From NCBI GenBank assembly GCA_937885575.1, contig CALABO010000013.1, forward strand, positions 46,438 through 110,437: a stretch of 64,000 bases of DNA, written 5' to 3'. The notes under the pieces are model-generated. The model ran no database searches. It saw only the letters and a list, made by a program, of their open reading frames with translations, and was not told the DNA's origin. The DNA comes from an uncultured Pseudomonadota bacterium. GTDB lineage: Bacteria > Pseudomonadota > Alphaproteobacteria > Rs-D84. This document shows, piece after piece, positions 4,472 through 56,266 of this stretch (position 1 is the first letter of the stretch; each line of letters starts with the position of its first letter). Made by a program: the position numbers and the translations under genes.

Positions 4472-5698
4472 ATGAAATATGACTTACAACAAATGTATTC
4501 ACATGCATTGGCTCTGCGCGAACCATGGATTAAACGTTGGGCCGACGCGCGCCGTTACACAATGCCGACAACCGACGAAGAAATTGCAACACTGTTCGAT
4601 GGAACGGCGGCGGACGCGGCGGATAATTTGGCGGCGTGTATGTATTCATTACTAACCCCGCCGGAATCATTGTGGTTGAACCTTGTCCCTGAATCCGAAG
4701 AATCACCGGACCCGGTTGCGGCAACGATGGCATTGCGTTCGAATCTTAATGAATCTAACTTTTATACAACCATTCATCAATGCTATATAGATTTGGTCAC
4801 AATGGGAACGGCATGCCTGTTTATGTCCGAATCGCCAATTGGCGCGGCAAGTGCGTTTAACTTTACGGCAATCCCGATGACAGACATTGCGATTTTGCCG
4901 AACGCAGTATTCCACACAGCAACCATGACCGCCCAAGAAGTTGCGCGCCGTTATCCCGAATGGACACCACCGCACGCAATCCTTGACGCGATGAAGCAAA
5001 ATCCGGAATACCAATTGCGCCTGGTCCAGGCATTGGTTGACACGGAATTTACCGCATGGATAGATGTCGGTGGCAATCTTGAAAACAACATTGTGTCGCG
5101 TGGCACATTTGAAACGAACCCATACATCATATTCCGCTGGGCCGTGTCCAGTGGCGAACTGTACGGCCGCGGGCCGGTGCTGCGGGCGCTACCTGATATC
5201 AAAACCGCGAACAAGGTCGTCGAACTTGTCCTGAAAAACGCAACCATCGCGGTCAGTGGCATATGGCAGGCCGACGATGACGGCGTAATAAACCTTGGCA
5301 ACATAAACCTTACCCCCGGTGCGATAATCCCAAAAGCGGTGGGCAGTACCGGCCTTACGCCACTTGCAACGGGTGCAAATTTTGATGTGTCGCAAATAAT
5401 TCTAAAAGACCTGCGCGAACGCATCCGCCACACAATGCTTGCGGACAGAATCGGCACGCTTTCGGACAAAGAAATGACCGCAACGGAAATACTTGCGCGG
5501 AATGCGGACATGTTGCGTATATTGGGCGCGACATACGGACGATTGCTGCACGAATTTATCCGGCCGCTTTGCGACCGCGGATTGCAAATCCTTGCGCGGC
5601 GCGGGGTAATCGACAAAATATCACTGCACAGTGACGCGGAATTAAAATACATCGCCCCGATTGCACAAATGGTCGCGGAAAACGGAACATTGATATAA
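4472..5698 (+). CDS. Phage portal / head-to-tail connector protein (possibly truncated)
   Basis: 408 aa directly after the terminase. The N-terminal region (..REPWIKRWADARRYTMP..DGTAADAADNLAA..) resembles podovirus connector proteins by eye. It is short for a portal. Confidence 0.55.
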   Translation: MKYDLQQMYSHALALREPWIKRWADARRYTMPTTDEEIATLFDGTAADAADNLAACMYSLLTPPESLWLNLVPESEESPDPVAATMALRSNLNESNFYTTIHQCYIDLVTMGTACLFMSESPIGAASAFNFTAIPMTDIAILPNAVFHTATMTAQEVARRYPEWTPPHAILDAMKQNPEYQLRLVQALVDTEFTAWIDVGGNLENNIVSRGTFETNPYIIFRWAVSSGELYGRGPVLRALPDIKTANKVVELVLKNATIAVSGIWQADDDGVINLGNINLTPGAIIPKAVGSTGLTPLATGANFDVSQIILKDLRERIRHTMLADRIGTLSDKEMTATEILARNADMLRILGATYGRLLHEFIRPLCDRGLQILARRGVIDKISLHSDAELKYIAPIAQMVAENGTLI

Positions 5699-6286: not shown

Positions 6287-6668
6287 TCCCTCTGTCGCGT
6301 CAAAGACGCGACGAACAGAGGTTCGAAGTCGCGCCCATTTCATTTTTATCGTCATACCGCTGTAAAGCGGTATCTGGTGGTTTCAGCCGTGACGACGGGA
6401 TACCGCGTTTCGGCGGCATGACGGCATTTTTATTAGCCCCTTGCACCAACAATCATTTTATGATACAATTCATGTGCCGGCGGGTGTTCCGTTGGTGGGG
6501 TGTAACGACCCTTTTGAGTTGCGTCCAAATTCTGGATGAAAAGTACTCCAACCAATCGGTTGGAGGGCTGTGAATAATATCGGACCATGTCCGATAAAAT
6601 AAACACACAATTCCAACTCAAATTGTCGTTAACCTCCAACCACTTGAAGTAATTCGGTGGTTTTTTGA

Positions 6669-6719
6669 TTCCCCTTTCTGGGGAAAGGGGTGTCGCCGAA
6701 CGGCGACAGGGTATGGGTG
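6669..6719. repeat. Solo CCTCC-hairpin module (degenerate)
   Basis: Sequence ttcccctttctggggaaaggggtgtcgccgaacggcgacagggtatgggtg. It shows the same two-hairpin layout as the DUF559 cassette termini. Confidence 0.6.
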
Positions 6720-6735: not shown

Positions 6736-8319
6736 ATGAAAAAATTTTTAACCGTTTTATGTTTATGCTTTGTATCAATTGATGTGTCGGCCGCCACGTA
6801 TGCATGTATAATGCAAGAAAAAGAAACTCTTATGCATGGCAGGTTAAGCGCAGGTGGTACGGAATTTTTATATTGTGGACATGTTGAAGACAAAGGGTGT
6901 GATGAAGGTGATGTAGTAAAGGGAGACAGAGAAAATGTGGCTAATCTTTTATGGAAATGTCATAATCATCATTGGATAAAAGTAGGTGAATCAGAGATTA
7001 GAGATTGCTCGTTGACAGAGAATTTAACAAATGAAGCGGTTGATGCGGTAAGCGAGACATCTAAATATGTGTTATATGGTGAATCTGACATGAGAAAACT
7101 TCATGATGGAGAAGAAGTCAAGAGTTGGGCTATCAAAGGTGGAATTGCTGGTGTATGCAAGATTAATTTAGCAGAGGCAAGAAAAGAGTGTGAAAAATCT
7201 GGCGGGACGCTAGAAGGCAGATATTGTAACTGTTCAAAGGATGGATATGCGCAAGGTGCAAATTTGACGGCACCGTGTGAGTGTGCGGATGGTTTGAAAA
7301 GAGGGGCCGATAACAAATGTTGGCCGGCACAATATGTTGATGGAAAGTGCTTGGTATACTTAAACCATATATATGATTGCCCACTTCCCGACGTTGGTCA
7401 CGAAGTAAATGGAATATTGTTTACCTATCTTGATAAGTATCGGTGTTCTTTTGTTTATAAAGATAGTAATTATTATCGTCTTTGTAATGATAATGGTAAA
7501 ATTATTAAAAAAATTGGTGTGGCATGTCCTGGATTTGATGATGAGTTAGCGTGGAATGCTTATGGAGAAGGTCGTTATAATCAGGAGGAAGATAAAGATG
7601 GTTTTCCGTGTATTAAACCTAAACCAGAATCCAAATACAACTATAAATCTTGTTCGGCTGATTCTGATTGCACGGGAATTGATAACACGGTGCGACCGTA
7701 TTTGCATTCGACGGCGTGGCACTGTGCGTGGCAAAGTGCGGGTGTGCGTGTTTGCGCCGCAACCGCGTGTGAATCGGGATGGACGCCGATAAATGGATAT
7801 TGCCAGGAAGACAAAACCGCGCAAACACCACAATCCGAAAATAAAAATGCTAATTCGGTATCCAATATCAAAACCGAAACGAAAGCGGGCACAAAGAAAC
7901 CCTGTACTGATTTGGATAATATGGATTCGAATTGCAAATGCATTGTTGTGGGAACGGTGGAACGTGGTGGAAAGTGCGTGTGTCGTGACGATAACCAAGA
8001 AATCAAAAATGGCAAATGTGAATGGACGGCAAAATATATTGCGGGGTTGGAAAGCGACCTTGATAGCAAATTTAACAATCTGACCGCAACGATTGGCGGG
8101 TTCGAAAAAAATGTATGGCGCGATGAAAATGGCGAATTTAACACCGCGCGCCTTGCGTCGGACAGTATTGCCGGTATTGTGCTGGGGACCGTTGGCGGAA
8201 TTGTGACGGCGAACCTTGTCAAAAAAGCCCAGGTTAAACAGGGATTTGAAGATATCGGTTGCTATATCGGCGGTCAATCCGTCGCCGGTTTCGGTGATGA
8301 ATTTAATGTTGGACGGTAA
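6736..8319 (+). CDS. Cysteine-rich secreted / membrane-anchored protein (527 aa)
   Basis: Signal peptide MKKFLTVLCLCFVSIDVSA. Many Cys in short-spaced clusters (CECADGLKRGADNKC; CKCIVVGTVERGGKCVC). C-terminal hydrophobic helix IAGIVLGTVGGIVTANLV. Visibly AT-richer than neighbours. Confidence 0.7.
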   Translation: MKKFLTVLCLCFVSIDVSAATYACIMQEKETLMHGRLSAGGTEFLYCGHVEDKGCDEGDVVKGDRENVANLLWKCHNHHWIKVGESEIRDCSLTENLTNEAVDAVSETSKYVLYGESDMRKLHDGEEVKSWAIKGGIAGVCKINLAEARKECEKSGGTLEGRYCNCSKDGYAQGANLTAPCECADGLKRGADNKCWPAQYVDGKCLVYLNHIYDCPLPDVGHEVNGILFTYLDKYRCSFVYKDSNYYRLCNDNGKIIKKIGVACPGFDDELAWNAYGEGRYNQEEDKDGFPCIKPKPESKYNYKSCSADSDCTGIDNTVRPYLHSTAWHCAWQSAGVRVCAATACESGWTPINGYCQEDKTAQTPQSENKNANSVSNIKTETKAGTKKPCTDLDNMDSNCKCIVVGTVERGGKCVCRDDNQEIKNGKCEWTAKYIAGLESDLDSKFNNLTATIGGFEKNVWRDENGEFNTARLASDSIAGIVLGTVGGIVTANLVKKAQVKQGFEDIGCYIGGQSVAGFGDEFNVGR

Positions 8320-8350
8320 ATAGTGGTAGTGTAAGTGATAAGTGTTAGTG

Positions 8351-8373: not shown

Positions 8374-8397
8374 GCGCAAAAATTCCAGAGTACGAGG

Positions 8398-8527
8398 TTC
8401 TCCTCCTGTGGAGGAGTACCCGAAGGGGGAGGTGGTCTTTTATAAATATAAAATATCTGGAATATGAAAGACCACCCCGTCCGCTTTCGCTATCGCTGCA
8501 GCGAGACACCCCTCCACAGGAGGGGAA
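8398..8527. mobile_element. ORF-less inverted pair of CCTCC-hairpin modules (MITE-like shell of the DUF559 cassette)
   Basis: 8398-8441 (..ggaggtggtctttt) and 8467-8527 (aaagaccacc..) are inverted copies separated by 25 nt. The termini have the same architecture as at 37405/37850 and 53665/54190, but there is no ORF. Confidence 0.6.
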
Positions 8528-8602
8528 CTTAGCTTTCTGGAATAACCACGTAATTACGAACAAATTCCAGAGCATACTAACCACTAACACTTACACTACC
8601 CA

Positions 8603-8944
8603 CTAAAACGCATTTTTTGTCCAATCGATATGTCGGCCGTGGACAATTATAACATCGAACCGTGCATCGCCCGTCCATCGCCGTTGCAGTAAAAATGTTT
8701 CCGCCGCCAATCGCAGCCGCCTTTGTTGTGCGGGCGTAATTGCGCCCCAGGCGGTCATTACCTCTTTGCGTTTTTTTACTTCAACAAAAATAATAAGTTT
8801 CCCGCGTTTTGCGATTATATCAATTTCTGCGCGCCCAGTGTTTCGCCCGGTTGTATAACGCCGATGCAAAATCCTAAACCCGTGCAGAATTAAAAACACG
8901 CACGCAAAAAATTCTGAAAAAATTCCGGTCTTGTATGAATCCAT
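8603..8944 (-). CDS. yraN: YraN-family (UPF0102) endonuclease-like protein
   Basis: 113 aa. Contains ..GRAEIDIIAKRGKLIIFVEVKKRK.. PD-(D/E)xK-like pattern typical of YraN. The stop TAG is formed at a repeat edge. Confidence 0.75.
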   Translation of the reverse strand: MDSYKTGIFSEFFACVFLILHGFRILHRRYTTGRNTGRAEIDIIAKRGKLIIFVEVKKRKEVMTAWGAITPAQQRRLRLAAETFLLQRRWTGDARFDVIIVHGRHIDWTKNAF

Positions 8945-36622: not shown

Positions 36623-38185
36623 ATGCTGCACACATCGGATTTTGATTTTGAATTGCCACCGGAACTTATCGCATCGCACCCGCTTGCGCGCCGTGACGCA
36701 TCACGTATGTTGGTGGTGGAACCCAGCGGGACCGGGGGAAAACTATCCATTTCTGACAAACATATTCGGGATTTTTTAGATTACCTGCGCCCCGGCGATG
36801 TTGTTGTGTTTAACAATTCGCGGGTAATTCCGGCGCGCTTTGATGCGGACGGTCACGAAATCACGCTGCATACCGCGGTTGACGATAAAAATTGGTGGGG
36901 CCTGTGTAAAAAGTTCAACAAAATAAACATTGGCGACACGCTGACCATGGCGGACGGCACAACAATAACCGTTATGGATAAAGACGACGAAAGTGGCCTT
37001 TTGCTGCGGTTTAATTGCGATAATGTGTTCGATGTCTTGAACCGCGTTGGCAAAATGCCGCTGCCACCGTATATGAAGCGCGATGCCGAAATCGCCGATC
37101 AAACGCGTTATCAAACGGTCTATGCCGACCCATTGGGGTCGATGGCGGCACCGACGGCGGGGTTGCACTTTACCGATGAATTGATGCATGAAATAGAGGC
37201 GCGCGGCGCAAAAATAGTAAAAATCACATTGCATGTTGGCGCGGGAACATGGATGCCGGTTAAAACTGAAAATCTTTCCGAACATAAAATGCACAGTGAA
37301 TGGTGCCAAATCACACCCGCCCAGGCCGACATTATAAACGCCGCAACGCGTGTAATCGCCGTCGGCACAACAACGCTCCGCACATTGGAATCCGCCGCGT
37401 CAAGTTCCCCTCCTTTGGAGGGGTGGCGGGTAGCACCCGCCGGGGTGGTTAGAGACACCGCAAACTATCGCACATTACCATTTAATCCAAACCTGAAACA
37501 ACGCGCCCGCGAATTGCGCCACGCAGGCAGCCTGCCCGAAGCATTATTGTGGCGTGAAATATCCGGCAAAAAAATAAACGGATTAAATTTTAATCGCCAA
37601 ACGGTAATTGGGAATTATATTGTTGATTTCTTTTGTCCCAAAACAGGGCTGGTTATTGAAATAGATGACAAAGCGTCGCATGATATCAAGGGCGCATACG
37701 ATGAAAAACGCGAAAAATTTTTGACTTCATTGGGGCTGACGACTTTGCATATTCCCGCCGCAGATGTGTTAAAAGATGTGTCGTCTGTTGCAAGCATGAT
37801 TGCGCGACACCCCGTCGCCGTTCGGCGCCACCCCTCTGGCCAGAGGGGAACTTGCTTCGGTTTCCAAACGAACACAACCATAAAGACATCGCGGCCCAAT
37901 TCCCCTCTGGCCAGAGGGGTGGCGGGTGGAACCCGCCGGAGTGTCGCCCCGCGTGTTGCACCGTTTTGTGGTACGACGGATATTTTTATCACACCGGGAT
38001 ATAAATTCCGTGCGGTTGACGTGTTGCTTACGAATTTTCATTTGCCCAAAAGTACACTCTTCATGTTGGTGTCGGCGTTTAGTGGACTTGAGCAGATGAA
38101 AGCCGCATACGCCCACGCCGTCGCCGAAAAATACCGTTTTTTCAGTTATGGCGATTGCTGTTTATTGTTTAGAAAGGATTCATAA
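36623..38185 (+). CDS. queA: S-adenosylmethionine:tRNA ribosyltransferase-isomerase QueA carrying an in-frame insertion of roughly 180 aa
   Basis: Single 520-aa ORF. It has canonical QueA blocks (..PLPPYM.., ..YQTVYA.., ..GLHFT.., ..VGTTTLRTLESAA and ..TDIFITPGYKFRAVDVLLTNFHLPKSTL..) with foreign sequence between the last two. Confidence 0.9.
   Translation: MLHTSDFDFELPPELIASHPLARRDASRMLVVEPSGTGGKLSISDKHIRDFLDYLRPGDVVVFNNSRVIPARFDADGHEITLHTAVDDKNWWGLCKKFNKINIGDTLTMADGTTITVMDKDDESGLLLRFNCDNVFDVLNRVGKMPLPPYMKRDAEIADQTRYQTVYADPLGSMAAPTAGLHFTDELMHEIEARGAKIVKITLHVGAGTWMPVKTENLSEHKMHSEWCQITPAQADIINAATRVIAVGTTTLRTLESAASSSPPLEGWRVAPAGVVRDTANYRTLPFNPNLKQRARELRHAGSLPEALLWREISGKKINGLNFNRQTVIGNYIVDFFCPKTGLVIEIDDKASHDIKGAYDEKREKFLTSLGLTTLHIPAADVLKDVSSVASMIARHPVAVRRHPSGQRGTCFGFQTNTTIKTSRPNSPLARGVAGGTRRSVAPRVAPFCGTTDIFITPGYKFRAVDVLLTNFHLPKSTLFMLVSAFSGLEQMKAAYAHAVAEKYRFFSYGDCCLLFRKDS
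37405..37943 (+). mobile_element. DUF559-nuclease cassette inserted in frame in queA (TIR 37405-37450, DUF559 domain, inverted TIR 37808-37850, solo module 37900-37943)
   Basis: Left end ttcccctcctttggaggggtggcgggtagcacccgccggggtggtt. Internal ..LPEALLWREI..GLNFNRQTVIGNYIVDFFCPKTGLVIEIDDKASHD.. is homologous to the 53727-54071 protein. Right end gccacccctctggccagaggggaa. Confidence 0.8.
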
Positions 38186-52985: not shown

Positions 52986-53104
52986 ACCGATATGTATAGC
53001 ACAAAAAACACAAATGTCAATGCTTTGTTTTGCTTGACTTTGGACTGGTTGTGGGTACAATTCAAGACGAATTGTTTTTTTGTAAAAATAATAAAGGTGA
53101 TAAG

Positions 53105-53605
53105 ATGATCGTTATGCCCCCAAATATAATTTGGCGAATGCATGGTGTTGAACCTGGGTTCGATTTTGATTTTTCAAAGAAAGATTCTTTAATCGCCTTT
53201 GGCGCGTTCATAATACTTAGCGGGGCATTAGTTGCGTATATGCTTTGTCAAAAAACCGACTGGGAAAAGGATTGTAAAAAGGCGCGTGAACAAGGTAACG
53301 AACAGTTAATAACCTATGCGTATTCACTTGCGGCGAAATCCGTAGATACGGTTGATTTTGCAAATTATAAAATTATTCCACAAAGACAAGCCGAACGCGA
53401 TTCTGTGCGTTCTGCGAGAAAGATTCGCAAATTTGTTAAAAAAACTGGTATACAATACATAGGGTACAACCGACAATGGGCACCAGTTCTTAGGACGGGC
53501 GCCGTAGTCAGAGATCCTGAATTTCAAAAACTTTCAAAAAAATACCAAACAGCTGCGCAAAGACTGATTGTTCAGCGTAAAATTTTGTCCTCCGAACATA
53601 AATGA
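53105..53605 (+). CDS. Hypothetical membrane protein (166 aa)
   Basis: ATG 53105 with an AAGGTGA RBS. One TM helix (LIAFGAFIILSGALVAYML). Confidence 0.5.
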   Translation: MIVMPPNIIWRMHGVEPGFDFDFSKKDSLIAFGAFIILSGALVAYMLCQKTDWEKDCKKAREQGNEQLITYAYSLAAKSVDTVDFANYKIIPQRQAERDSVRSARKIRKFVKKTGIQYIGYNRQWAPVLRTGAVVRDPEFQKLSKKYQTAAQRLIVQRKILSSEHK

Positions 53606-53612
53606 TTTTATG

Positions 53613-53660
53613 TTATGCCAATGCGCCGACGGACATAGTTATCCGGCGGATGCCACTGCT
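53613..53660 (-). pseudogene. Detached second copy of the alaS 3' terminus (15 codons + TAA)
   Basis: The minus-strand translation is SSGIRRITMSVGALA*, identical to the live alaS end at 54191-54238. There are 6 nucleotide differences, all synonymous third positions. Confidence 0.85.
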
Positions 53661-54190
53661 CAAATTCCCCTTCACACAGTGAAGGGGTGGCCATGGCACC
53701 GCTTGCGGTAACAGGCCGGGGTAGTTTTACAATATTCCGTTAATCGTTGAATAATCGTGTTCAATGTTACGTTTTACATCAATATCTGCAATATGCCAAA
53801 TTTTCAAGTTCCATGACGCCAAATAATCATCGCGTGCCCGATCATATTCTTGCTTATTATCATGTGATTCGCCATCTATTTCTATCACAAGGTTTAATTC
53901 TGCACAATAAAAGTCAACGATATAATTGCCAATGATTCTCTGACGGTCAAAATCCAATCCGCAGATTTGTTTGTTTTTTACCGCGTTCCAAAATAATACT
54001 TCCGCCAGTGTGGAATTTTTTCTTAACTCTCGCGCACGTTCTTTCAAAGACATGTTTGCTGGAAACTTCATTATAAACTATCTCGCTTCACATATTGAAA
54101 AACTACCCCACCGGCTTTCGCCGGTCCCCCCCTTCACAAAATCGGGCCCCGCAAAATTTGAAAAATTTTGTGGGTGATAGCCGAAGGGGA
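53661..54190 (-). mobile_element. DUF559-nuclease cassette with hairpin-type terminal inverted repeats
   Basis: Termini lie at 53665-53728 (ttccccttcac-aca-gtgaagggg..ggccggggtagtttt) and 54097-54190 (aaaactacccc..ccccttcac..gaagggga) around ORF 53727-54071. Confidence 0.75.
53727..54071 (-). CDS. DUF559 / Vsr-like PD-(D/E)xK endonuclease domain protein
   Basis: 114 aa containing ..STLAEVLFWNAV..GLDFDRQRIIGNYIVDFYCAELNLVIEIDGESHD... Confidence 0.8.
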   Translation of the reverse strand: MKFPANMSLKERARELRKNSTLAEVLFWNAVKNKQICGLDFDRQRIIGNYIVDFYCAELNLVIEIDGESHDNKQEYDRARDDYLASWNLKIWHIADIDVKRNIEHDYSTINGIL

Positions 54191-56266
54191 TTAGGCCAAT
54201 GCGCCGACGGACATTGTGATACGGCGAATTCCACTGCTGATGGATTTTTCCTTGTTTATCTTTGCGCGCAAAATTTCGCCGGTGTGATTTACATGCGTTC
54301 CGCCACACAGTTCGCATGACACATCGCCCGCGGTTATCACGCGCACGACATCGCCATACTTTTCCCCGAACAGTGCCATCGCCCCGCGCTTTTTCGCCGC
54401 ATCAATCGGCATCTCTTCGTGTTTAACGGGTATATCGGCCGCAATCCATTTATTCACCAAATCTTCAACCGCCGTTTTTTCTTCCGCCGTCATTGCGCGC
54501 CCAAATGAAAAGTCAAACCGCACGGAATCCGGCGCGACCCGCGAGCCACGTTGTTCCACATCGGTATTCAGAACTTGTCGCAATGCGGCTTGCAACAAAT
54601 GTGTTGCGGTATGCGCGCGCGCCGTCTGTGCCCGAACATCCGCGTTTATAACCGGCGTCACAGTGTCACCCACAGAAATTTTTCCAACAACCGTTCCGCG
54701 ATGCAAAACAACATTATTCGCACGCGTGGCATCCGTCACATCAAGAACGACGTTGTCGCCGATTTTCAATTTGCCGCTGTCGCCAACCTGGCCACCCTGG
54801 GTGCCATAGAAATTTGTTTTATCCAAAGCAACCTCTACCACATCGCCGTCGGTTGCGGTGTCCACGAATTCTTCGCCACGCAGTATCGCCAAAACGCGCG
54901 ATTGCATATCGGCAATGGGTGCATACTTTGCCATGTCATCCGTCGCCACAACATCGGTGCGCGATTCCCAAAGTATTTTTGTTCCGCGTGTGTCGGCGCG
55001 ACTGCGTTCCTTTTGCGCCGCCATTTCGGATTCGAATTCCGCGACATCGACATCAATGCCACGTTCGCGCAAAATCATTTGCGTTAAATCAAGCGGAAAC
55101 CCATACGTATCAAATAACTTAAACGCGACCGCACCCGGCAAAGTTTTCCCCGAAAGTTTCGGCAATTCGTTGTCCAATAATTTCATACCATTGTTCAACA
55201 TATCGGCAAAGGCGTTTTCTTCGTTCGTTATGATTTCAACAACGTGCGCTTGGTTTTTGGCAAGTTCCGGATATGTTTCGCCCATCTGTTCCACCAATGC
55301 CGGATAAAGTTTCGACAGCAACGCGCCCGAATGCCCAAGCAGCTGACCATGCCGCATCGCGCGCCGCAAAATACGGCGAATCACATAACCACGGTCGGTG
55401 TTCGAAGGAATCACACCGTCCGCAATCGCAAATCCAACCGAACGCAAGTGGTCAGTGATAACCTTGAAACTGGTTTTATTCGTGTCGGTTTCTTTAACAC
55501 CCGTCACGTCACTCACCGCGCGTTTAAGGTTCCGGAATAAATCGGTGTCATAGTTATCAAATTTACCTTGCAACATTGCCGCCCATCGTTCCAGTCCCGC
55601 ACCCGTATCAACATTTTGCTTTGGCAATTTTGTTAAATTCCCATTTGCATCGCGGTCGTATTGCATAAACACATCGTTCCAAATTTCAACAAAACGCCCG
55701 CCGTCTTCGTCCGGTGTGCCCGGCAGCCCCCCCGGAATATCCGCACCAAAGTCATAGAAAATTTCACTGCACGGGCCACACGGGCCGGTGTCGCCCGCCG
55801 ACCACCAGTTATCTTTATCCAAACGAATTGCATCCTTGCCCGCGACTTTTTTCCAAATTTCCGTTGCTTCATCATCGGAAATATGTGTCGTCACGACAAG
55901 GCGCGCCGGGTCAATCCCAATAACACGCGTCAATAAATCCCACGACATTTCGATTGCACCGTCCTTGAAATAATCGCCAAACGACCAATTCCCCATCATT
56001 TCAAAGAAAGTATGATGCCGACCGTCAAAACCAACATCTTCCAAATCATTATGTTTTCCGCCCGCACGAATACACTTTTGCACGTCGGCCACACGCGGCG
56101 CCGGTGCGGGTTCAAGCCCCTGTAATATCCCCTTCCACGGAACCATGCCGGCGACAGTGAACAATAATGTCGGGTCGTTCGGTATAAGTGACGCAGACGG
56201 TACAATTTTATGCCCGTGCGATTCAAAATAATCCAAGAAAACTTTTCTAATTTCATCATATGTCAT
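54191..56266 (-). CDS. alaS: Alanine--tRNA ligase (short form, ends after the editing domain)
   Basis: 691 aa. Class II catalytic core plus ..HTATHLLQAAL.. and ..CGGTHV.. editing-site motifs. No C-Ala region. Confidence 0.92.
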   Translation of the reverse strand: MTYDEIRKVFLDYFESHGHKIVPSASLIPNDPTLLFTVAGMVPWKGILQGLEPAPAPRVADVQKCIRAGGKHNDLEDVGFDGRHHTFFEMMGNWSFGDYFKDGAIEMSWDLLTRVIGIDPARLVVTTHISDDEATEIWKKVAGKDAIRLDKDNWWSAGDTGPCGPCSEIFYDFGADIPGGLPGTPDEDGGRFVEIWNDVFMQYDRDANGNLTKLPKQNVDTGAGLERWAAMLQGKFDNYDTDLFRNLKRAVSDVTGVKETDTNKTSFKVITDHLRSVGFAIADGVIPSNTDRGYVIRRILRRAMRHGQLLGHSGALLSKLYPALVEQMGETYPELAKNQAHVVEIITNEENAFADMLNNGMKLLDNELPKLSGKTLPGAVAFKLFDTYGFPLDLTQMILRERGIDVDVAEFESEMAAQKERSRADTRGTKILWESRTDVVATDDMAKYAPIADMQSRVLAILRGEEFVDTATDGDVVEVALDKTNFYGTQGGQVGDSGKLKIGDNVVLDVTDATRANNVVLHRGTVVGKISVGDTVTPVINADVRAQTARAHTATHLLQAALRQVLNTDVEQRGSRVAPDSVRFDFSFGRAMTAEEKTAVEDLVNKWIAADIPVKHEEMPIDAAKKRGAMALFGEKYGDVVRVITAGDVSCELCGGTHVNHTGEILRAKINKEKSISSGIRRITMSVGALA

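Follow-up and report, generated by a model that had tools for sequence, protein, structure and literature searches.

A DUF559 nuclease cassette bracketed by two alleles of the alaS 3' end in an uncultured alphaproteobacterium: a candidate minimal selfish element

Some integrative elements, such as phages and islands, have an attachment site that overlaps the 3' end of a tRNA or protein gene. In fungal mitochondria, the mORFs combine a gene core, an inserted C-terminus, an endonuclease open reading frame (ORF) and a displaced native C-terminus; examples are atp6 of Allomyces macrogynus and atp6, atp9, cox2 and nad3 of Glomus (PMC3630166). The homing endonuclease I-Bth0305I is an intron-borne, multidomain protein with N-terminal DNA-binding domains and a 60-bp footprint (PMC3239194), and the EDxHD/Vsr-like homing endonucleases reside in self-splicing group I introns or between the halves of split inteins, where they are known as "fractured gene" endonucleases (PMC3239194, PMC2677866). 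A further kind of element is the in-frame palindromic mini-elements, namely the Rickettsia palindromic elements and other miniature transposable elements with inverted repeats (MITEs) (reviewed in PMC10969869). Here we describe a locus in which a 530-nt cassette with a single gene, for a predicted nuclease of the DUF559 family, lies between two copies of the 3' end of alaS, the gene for alanyl-tRNA synthetase (AlaRS). The locus is in a 64,000-nt stretch, called the window, of contig CALABO010000013.1 from an uncultured alphaproteobacterium (Rs-D84). We consider it probable (roughly 0.6) that the pair of copies is the footprint of a minimal selfish DUF559 cassette at the end of alaS, which entered or was exchanged by homology-guided recombination over the gene terminus.

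The features of the locus, in window coordinates, are the following.

54191..56266 (-), alaS ORF, the host gene, encoding a 691-aa AlaRS without the C-Ala domain (Pfam tRNA-synt_2c, E 1e-192, and tRNA_SAD)
54191..54238 (-), proximal, functional copy of the alaS terminus, contiguous with alaS: SSGIRRITMSVGALA plus TAA, the last 15 codons
54092..54190 (-), left end of the cassette: outer hairpin, inner hairpin, box and inverted-repeat arm
54136..54182 (-), 47-nt palindromic insert nested in the outer-hairpin loop of the left end
53727..54071 (-), DUF559/Vsr-like PD-(D/E)xK nuclease gene, 114 aa, Pfam PF04480
53661..53726 (-), cassette right end, reverse-complementary to the left-end module: ACTACCCC, then inner and outer hairpin (53667-53687)
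53613..53660 (-), distal, untranslated copy of the alaS terminus, another allele (GGC ATC CGC CGG ATA ACT), ending in TAA
53030..53612, spacer of about 590 nt unique to the window lineage, from the distal copy to a GT2 gene

The two 48-nt copies form a direct repeat with 42 of 48 nucleotides identical, and both encode SSGIRRITMSVGALA followed by TAA. All six differences (GGA/GGC, ATT/ATC, CGT/CGG, ATC/ATA, ACA/ACT and GCC/GCA, proximal/distal) are at third positions and synonymous. Similarity between the copies breaks off sharply at either side, as seen in a repeat search and by BLAST within the window (E 2e-11), and the distance between them is exactly 530 nt (53661-54190). Re-derived from the sequence, this repeat with synonymous-only differences around a DUF559 cassette was just as an earlier, preliminary description of the locus had given it. 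The TAA at 54191-54193 doubles as the first 3 nt of the cassette left end, TAATCCCC. Within the left end, the outer hairpin CCCCTTC...GAAGGGG occupies 54129-54189, the inner hairpin CCGGCGAAAGCCGG 54111-54124 and the box GGGGTAGT 54102-54109. The termini of the cassette constitute an 18-nt inverted repeat (94% identity), and a 6-nt filler, AATTTG (53661-53666), separates the right end from the distal copy. The AlaRS of the window clade is 691 aa long throughout and stops 10 residues past the GIRRI motif of the second additional domain; it lacks the C-terminal C-Ala domain of canonical AlaRS.

Relatives of the locus came from searches for DUF559 homologs and for AlaRS homologs and from scanning metagenomes with the AlaRS C-terminus; loci fetched from other assemblies and compared with the window are designated by L-numbers (L001 etc.). 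An exact-protein look-up of the window AlaRS gave no match. The closest DUF559 homologs (86-91% identity) were all located at syntenic alaS loci of other assemblies, and the cassette bracketed by copies of the terminus was present in at least five other independent assemblies (L001, L002, L003/L004, L005/L006 and L106). L001 contains two tandem cassettes and three terminus copies, with a period of 536/537 nt. The AlaRS homolog search yielded 26 proteins with 93-98% identity, all of 691 aa, and seven contigs were read. The empty alaS ends looked for at the suggestion of the preliminary description were found both in close relatives (94-98% AlaRS identity; L169, L171, L172/L173 and L174, representing four distinct empty alleles) and, in the metagenome scan, in about 48 more distant ones (72-86% identity), which had a single terminus and no DUF559 within 4 kb. 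Two further loci, L170 and L175, are remnants left by a deletion: the proximal copy, TAA, left end and first DUF559 bases run directly into the 3' end of the glycosyltransferase gene that lies downstream. Both have the deletion junction gtttgtaATGAAC|CAGAATGC (L170, 4577-4680; L175, 5077-5140), and what was lost comprises DUF559, the right end, the distal copy of alaS and the larger part of the glycosyltransferase gene. The second cassette of L003 is also decayed. Occupied, empty and decayed alleles coexist in strains whose alaS DNA is 86-93% identical. Because close relatives include empty sites and deletion remnants, we conclude that the alaS cassette is an insertion polymorphism, and the mobility proposed for it in the preliminary description was supported.

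The same comparison bears on whether the repeat could be false. A collapsed or chimeric join might produce such a repeat, since this is a metagenome-type assembly and short repeats can mis-join; however, at least six independent contigs from JGI, ENA, Logan and NCBI, from other samples and assemblers, carry the same structure with sequence differences, the two copies differ at six sites, and the cassette ORF is conserved. An assembly artefact is scarcely credible and was rejected. A duplication without a cassette, the other alternative that had been raised at the outset, was searched for in the 48 empty alleles and found in none of them (0/48).

The stop codons distinguish the two kinds of copy. 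All nine copies followed by a left end terminate in TAA, whereas native contexts have TAG in seven of seven cases (the four distinct empty alleles and the native-flanked distal copies of L001, L002 and L005). Because the left end TAATCCCC abuts the last sense codon and the stop codons divide in this way, we conclude from the junction sequences that the functional gene takes its stop codon from the element and that the native stop has remained on the distal copy.

Throughout the clade the peptide SGIRRITMSVG is unchanged while its codons vary freely, and the synonymous variants that separate the copies also circulate among empty alleles. Pooled over the occupied loci, the proximal/distal differences amounted to 22 synonymous and 1 nonsynonymous. 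Under the null, in which about 28% of random substitutions in the terminus segment would be synonymous, the P of this ratio is about 1e-11 when every change is taken as neutral and 5e-4 when half are taken to have arisen in the selected copy; the corresponding values for the window alone (6:0) are 5e-4 and 0.07. Neutral decay of a leftover copy was rejected because of this excess, which argues instead that both copies derive from functional alaS alleles, as had been proposed from the window alone. Gene conversion is evident from the identity of the copies in L001 (over the first 42 nt) and in L106 (over 54 nt). A 22:1 ratio is beyond what conversion by itself can yield; therefore, alleles must have come in from other functional genes.

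These data also speak to the idea that the cassette is an inert relic of a single ancient accident, inherited vertically and lost repeatedly, with the distal copy kept gene-like by conversion. The divergence of the cassettes tracks that of their hosts, the L001 and L106 copies are homogenized, the window nuclease gene is frameshifted (see below), and the cassettes of L170, L175 and L003 are decayed, all as such a relic would have it. Conversion alone, however, predicts many nonsynonymous differences originating in the unselected copy, against the 22:1 found (P 5e-4 under a generous null). Moreover, alleles that are proximal in some strains are distal in others, relatives whose alaS DNA is 86-92% identical show an interleaved mix of occupied and empty alleles, the architecture recurs at three other genes, and the family is polymorphic at queA in one third of close relatives. 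We regard a relic as very improbable.

The cassette ORF matched Pfam PF04480 with an E of 3.4e-28 and 98.1 bits, and a second insert of the family, in queA, scored 85.8 bits (cut-off 20.6). Residues D53, E64, D66 and H70 were invariant in 27 sequences, and the motif aligned to that of 3hrl. In a Foldseek search with an AF2 model of the window protein (pLDDT 86.5), the top match was 3hrl, a DUF559 structure (TM 0.71/0.86), and the next was 3r3p, the catalytic domain of I-Bth0305I (TM 0.64/0.73, E 7e-5, probability 1.00), which ranked above Vsr. According to this model, the closest characterized fold is that of the homing endonuclease I-Bth0305I, and nuclease activity is predicted for the DUF559 protein. 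The 114-aa ORF of the preliminary description is present, but it owes its length to a +1 frameshift near codon 103, as seen against four 132-aa relatives; intact relatives are 132 aa long. The catalytic core is unaffected. Because the alternative frame beyond the frameshift restores the conserved C-terminal tail of the 132-aa relatives, the window copy is probably decaying. No promoter or terminator consensus was found between the alaS stop and the DUF559 start; therefore, read-through transcription from alaS is assumed.

DUF559 is the sole ORF in the 530 nt, which contain no transposase, integrase or recombinase and gave no match to a transposase family. No Rfam family matched at E<=1 in 53400-54450, the region 37300-38050 around the queA insert gave sub-threshold hairpin matches alone, and a Pfam search of the interrupted QueA detected no Hint/intein domain. 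An intron or intein that spares the host gene was rejected, because neither the RNA nor the domain was detected. The PADLOC profiles DpdF and mREase_II matched the DUF559 core (53730-54071) alone, and weakly (E about 2-3e-5). Membership in a defence system was rejected, since the matches were weak and local and there was no system context; the seed proteins of DpdF and mREase_II may contain embedded cassettes of the DUF559 family. The 47-nt palindromic insert in the left end has the core cccacaaaattt-ttc-aaattttgcggg, at a place where relatives have a 7-nt loop (window compared with L001). It occurs at the same place in L005 and L170 and, reversed, at an unrelated position in L044, and it seems to represent a distinct repeat family, smaller still.

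The preliminary description proposed that the cassette travels with a replacement terminus for its target, that in the window the recoded copy is the travelling one, and that recoding protects an occupied site from being cut again. The allele comparisons agreed with these claims only in part. In L002, the proximal copy is a cassette-associated allele, designated C (0-1 mismatches to L003, L170 and L001b); its distal copy matches, with 2 mismatches, the native allele of L169 and has the native TAG stop and flank. The left end brings the stop codon, and L002 fits a travelling terminus; the window is reversed. Its proximal copy is host-like, differing at 2 of 45 positions from L169, the nearest empty allele (and also at 2 from L175), whereas its distal copy has 5 mismatches to L169 (5-6 over L169 and L175) and is closest to the middle copy of L003 (2 mismatches), which precedes the second, decayed cassette of that locus. 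The copy that matches the host is thus proximal in the window and distal in L002, and the L002 distal copy resembles the window proximal copy; the alleles have swapped position. Segment-wise identities did not settle which copy is cassette-borne; comparison with close empty alleles showed that the copies are mosaics and that the answer depends on the locus. The distal copy of the window is most likely, by inference, an inner copy left over from a tandem array that has since lost its second cassette and its native end. Protection by recoding found no support: no position was consistently recoded, and identical copies occur (100% over 54 nt in L106, and over 42 nt in L001).

These results also limit a strict homing of the mORF type, which comes near the preliminary description. 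Here the moving unit would be the proximal copy, stop codon and cassette; the nuclease would cut empty alaS about 48 nt before the stop, repair would copy the unit in, the distal copy would be the displaced native end, and recoding would make occupied alleles immune. L002 fits this arrangement, with allele C, native L169 allele, TAG and flank, and native TAG and flank are retained by the distal copies of L001, L002 and L005. A homing endonuclease has the fold nearest to that of the nuclease, the nucleases cluster by site, and in the published mORFs the native C-terminus likewise lies downstream (PMC3630166). The window assignment is nevertheless opposite, with a host-like proximal and a foreign-like distal copy. 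No position is consistently recoded, and because the L106 copies are identical over 54 nt and the L001 copies over 42 nt, any target internal to the repeat would persist in occupied alleles. In addition, the proximal copy is contiguous with alaS, so that insertion leaves the site at the -48 boundary undisrupted, and conserved inverted ends, miniature derivatives and a move to a second queA site are neither needed nor expected. We consider strict homing unlikely.

For a survey of the family, one genome per species was scanned with a DUF559 alignment, yielding 80 loci with 51-72% identity. They span Alphaproteobacteria (including several Candidatus Enterousia metagenome-assembled genomes), Bacteroidota, Cyanobacteria, Desulfobacterota, Saccharibacteria and other groups. 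The left end, ATTCCCCTCC-loop-GGAGGGG-TGG-(stem-loop)-CGGGGTGGT, was present upstream of DUF559 in 73 of the 80 loci, and its reverse complement downstream in 61. The outer hairpin is conserved in sequence across the family and the inner hairpin in structure: 105 of 108 distinct variants fold (>=4 bp), compared with 39% of shuffles, using 61 different stem arms. The inner hairpin is, by these counts, kept by compensatory changes. Composites of right end, spacer and left end, and also tandem units, occur in other phyla. The reading frame of DUF559 continues without a stop for 100 codons or more to both sides in 31 of the 80 loci and to one side in a further 14; at such loci the whole cassette, hairpin ends included, lies in-frame in long ORFs (HsdR-like proteins, DILDYIYAVLHSPTYREKY-type methyltransferases and queA). 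Long duplications of the host gene were not found at these mid-gene in-frame sites.

Flanking duplications of a terminus, which the preliminary description had suggested looking for at other cassettes, were found at alaS, serS and two other genes, and mid-gene sites lacked them. In L106 the alaS terminus is duplicated over 54 nt with 100% identity; it is of the host's own GTLAE type and is followed by the native terminator, and the nuclease is 64% identical to that of the window. The serS terminus is duplicated in L092, L104 and L107, and L093 has the same left junction at a contig end. The terminus of a secreted-protein gene is duplicated in L087 and L090; the L090 distal copy is frameshifted and for this reason appears to be decaying. 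An RHS-like gene in L165 has a 78-nt duplication. The host gene was always upstream and on the same strand, the duplication length depended on the site (about 45, 48-54, 60 or 78 nt), and 2-6 nt of filler separated the right end from the distal copy. The nucleases cluster by insertion site, and that of the L106 alaS cassette groups with the serS cassettes, not with that of the window.

Such duplications might instead arise as in transposition, by nicks 45-60 nt apart on the two strands, made by the nuclease or by host repair, with fill-in duplicating the host terminus and later allelic recombination altering one copy or the other. Vsr-type enzymes, such as Vsr of Escherichia coli, are nickases. 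The perfect 54-nt duplication of L106, made of that host's own terminus with the same boundaries and next to a nuclease only 64% identical, suggests an independent event; the inverted ends, ORF-less derivatives, multiple copies per genome and 2-6 nt of filler are also as expected of a transposon. Unlike a duplication set by a transposase, however, these vary in length (about 45, 48-54, 60 and 78 nt) and are absent mid-gene. The element TAA and native TAG mean that the copies already differed at the stop when they were formed, and the nucleases are site-faithful, with the two cassettes of one genome only 50% identical, which indicates that there was no recent hopping within the genome. An inspection by eye of the two duplication boundaries for a shared nick-site motif revealed nothing convincing. 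A long staggered-cut duplication is distinctly unlikely, but it is a live rival, because neither of the homology-based routes set out below explains the first duplication or the shared left boundary.

The window contains other members of the family, one of which lies in queA.

37403..37948 (+), second cassette, 546 nt (182 codons), in-frame inside the queA ORF (36623..38185), with the DUF559 core at 37475-37801
8392..8528 (+), ORF-less miniature derivative, 137 nt: left end, 36 nt and right end
6667..6712 (+), solo left-end module

The queA cassette has a direct copy of the left-end module at each flank (37403-37449 and 37898-37948), and its nuclease and that of the alaS cassette are 50% identical. 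A DUF559 insert is present in about one third of the QueA relatives with 83-97% identity; the proteins without interruption read LESAA-QNAAPGE-RARVAPFCG. A second queA insertion site lies near the N-terminus, and many QueA proteins have in-frame solo-end footprints. The window cassette, at site 2, is 88% identical over 516 nt to the site-1 cassette of L167 and 98% identical over the trailing end module, the queA sequences themselves being 91-93% identical. One lineage of cassettes is thus present at two queA positions. An inspection of the queA junctions by eye for a short target duplication gave a possible CCGCGT at site 2, which was unconvincing. The conserved hairpin ends, the ORF-less derivatives and the presence of one lineage at two queA sites show that the family is no pure single-site homing element.

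We therefore return to the reading we prefer, homology-guided entry or exchange of a selfish cassette over the alaS terminus. The joining of the left end TAATCCCC to the last sense codon gives AlaRS its stop from the element and leaves an essential gene intact without splicing. The segment of the last 15 codons would serve as the homology arm for entry and for exchange from strain to strain. Two routes can be envisaged. One is homing-like, with break repair copied from an occupied allele. In the other, a circular or tandem unit with the junction right end-terminus-TAA-left end would enter by a single crossover; this route fits the right end-spacer-left end composites found elsewhere and the left-end direct repeats around the queA cassette. 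Tandem junctions were seen in L001 and L003 and are indistinguishable from circle junctions. Either route would result in an upstream copy fused to the element stop and a downstream copy with the native stop and flank, and either predicts that crossover points vary, that tandem arrays form and that alleles change places from strain to strain, all of which is observed. Each copy is a mosaic of the alaS alleles that circulate in the population, which would account for the synonymous differences. The DUF559 protein would make the initiating cut, in the target gene or at the hairpin ends, and the intermediate would be a broken chromosome or a circle. The element in the window is probably past its active phase, because its nuclease gene is frameshifted and the distal copy and flank look like the remnant of a former tandem array.

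Several observations weigh against this reading. The DUF559 protein has only 114-132 aa, with none of the DNA-binding domains that I-Bth0305I has (PMC3239194). The cassettes diverge roughly in step with alaS, so that much of the distribution could be due to vertical descent and loss. The proximal copies of L002 and L003 are the same allele C, despite cassettes that share only 87% identity, which indicates that terminus and cassette are not tightly linked. Homology-guided entry leaves the first duplication at each gene unexplained, and also the left boundary shared by the window clade and L106, whose nuclease groups with those of the serS cassettes. Mid-gene in-frame insertions have no host duplication; therefore, a different entry route must also exist. 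Finally, the 48-nt segments hold few informative sites.

The surroundings of these elements contained the following. The native downstream flank that relatives have at alaS is missing from the window; the gap between alaS and GT2 is 35 nt in L169. In the window, a 191-aa ORF (53030..53605, +) that converges on alaS occupies the spacer of about 590 nt. It had no Pfam, PADLOC, NCBIfam or PHROG match, and the spacer had no BLAST match among the fetched relative loci. Between the solo left end and the miniature element lies an ORF (6736..8319) whose C-terminus, CYIGGQSVAGFGDEFNVGR, resembles that of the host gene with the duplicated terminus in L087/L090. A GT-rich motif, gtgttagtgtaagtgattagtgg, follows the stop codons of several genes in the window (8322-8350 and 8578-8610) and in relatives (L001, 6996-7030; L169, 4577-4615), and an inverted pair of this motif in the window brackets a terminator and the miniature element. 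A phage portal gene (head-tail connector, PF12236) at 4472-5698 (+) suggests a prophage or gene-transfer-agent region upstream in the window.

In a wider view, for which we would give slightly less than even odds, DUF559, a very large family, would supply the nuclease for a minimal, pan-bacterial class of selfish element, in each of which stop-free two-hairpin ends would enclose a single small gene for a Vsr-like nuclease. These elements would live in conserved genes without introns or inteins, with solo ends acting as landing pads and as in-frame peptide inserts. Such elements would have two modes: they would be translated through in-frame, as in queA, HsdR-like and methyltransferase genes, or, at termini such as those of alaS and serS, they would supply the stop and duplicate the terminus. 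If this were true, the class would be an autonomous counterpart to the in-frame palindromic elements of the Rickettsia type, and DUF559, a widespread family of unknown function, would gain a biological role. Terminus replacement or translation through would then be a third way, besides introns and inteins, to occupy essential bacterial genes, and the DUF559 cassette would be a bacterial counterpart to the fungal mitochondrial mORFs. The odd annotation of QueA, HsdR and methyltransferase proteins with a DUF559 domain, and the PADLOC models that match DUF559, would also be explained. The comparison points to a small nuclease whose candidate preferred substrate is a specific coding sequence or a two-hairpin DNA end, and the alaS, serS and queA polymorphisms could be used as strain markers in gut and rumen Alphaproteobacteria.

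No account of mobility, hairpin ends or terminus duplication was found in the DUF559 literature searched. The literature on Vsr-type inserted elements yielded solely the work on fractured genes and I-Bth0305I, and no description of a bacterial endonuclease cassette that duplicates a terminus was found. Integrative elements at gene 3' ends resemble the locus in having direct repeats of the 3' end, an element part that restores the gene, a displaced fragment at the far end and possible tandem arrays. They differ in that the cassette has no integrase or recombinase and measures about 0.5 kb in all, with a single small nuclease gene. The repeats of the cassette are mosaics of alleles whose crossover points vary, a pattern that suggests exchange by homologous and not by site-specific recombination. 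With insertion sequences and MITEs, the family shares terminal inverted repeats, multiple copies and ORF-less derivatives; unlike them, it has no recognized transposase, and its duplications of 45-78 nt are site-dependent and absent mid-gene. Like the palindromic mini-elements, it has stop-free, hairpin-rich ends, in-frame residence in genes, ORF-less copies and solo-end footprints that form short peptide inserts. In contrast to them, it includes a protein-coding, possibly autonomous version (DUF559), with no classical transposase and no short fixed target duplication seen; we know of no mobilizing enzyme for the elements of the Rickettsia type.

The EDxHD enzymes share with the DUF559 protein a Vsr-like catalytic fold, an acidic/His motif (E..D...H), residence in housekeeping genes and site-faithful lineages. 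The DUF559 protein differs from them in being a single domain of 114-132 aa with no intron or intein detected, and the cassette spares its host gene by terminus duplication or by being translated through. The fungal mitochondrial mORF is the closest described analogue. Both have a gene core, an in-phase terminus copy, a free-standing endonuclease ORF and a second, non-functional terminus copy, and in both there is no intron or intein, the copies differ synonymously, the terminus copies come from different lineages, and presence or absence is polymorphic among close relatives. The mORF pattern of a foreign upstream and a native downstream copy agrees with L002, and in stop and flank with L001, L002 and L005, whereas the codons of the window are reversed. 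The two systems also differ in residence (bacterial chromosomes rather than organelles) and in nuclease (DUF559/Vsr-like rather than LAGLIDADG or GIY-YIG), and the DUF559 cassette has, in addition, two-hairpin inverted ends, ORF-less derivatives, its own stop codon and a duplication of 45-60 nt.

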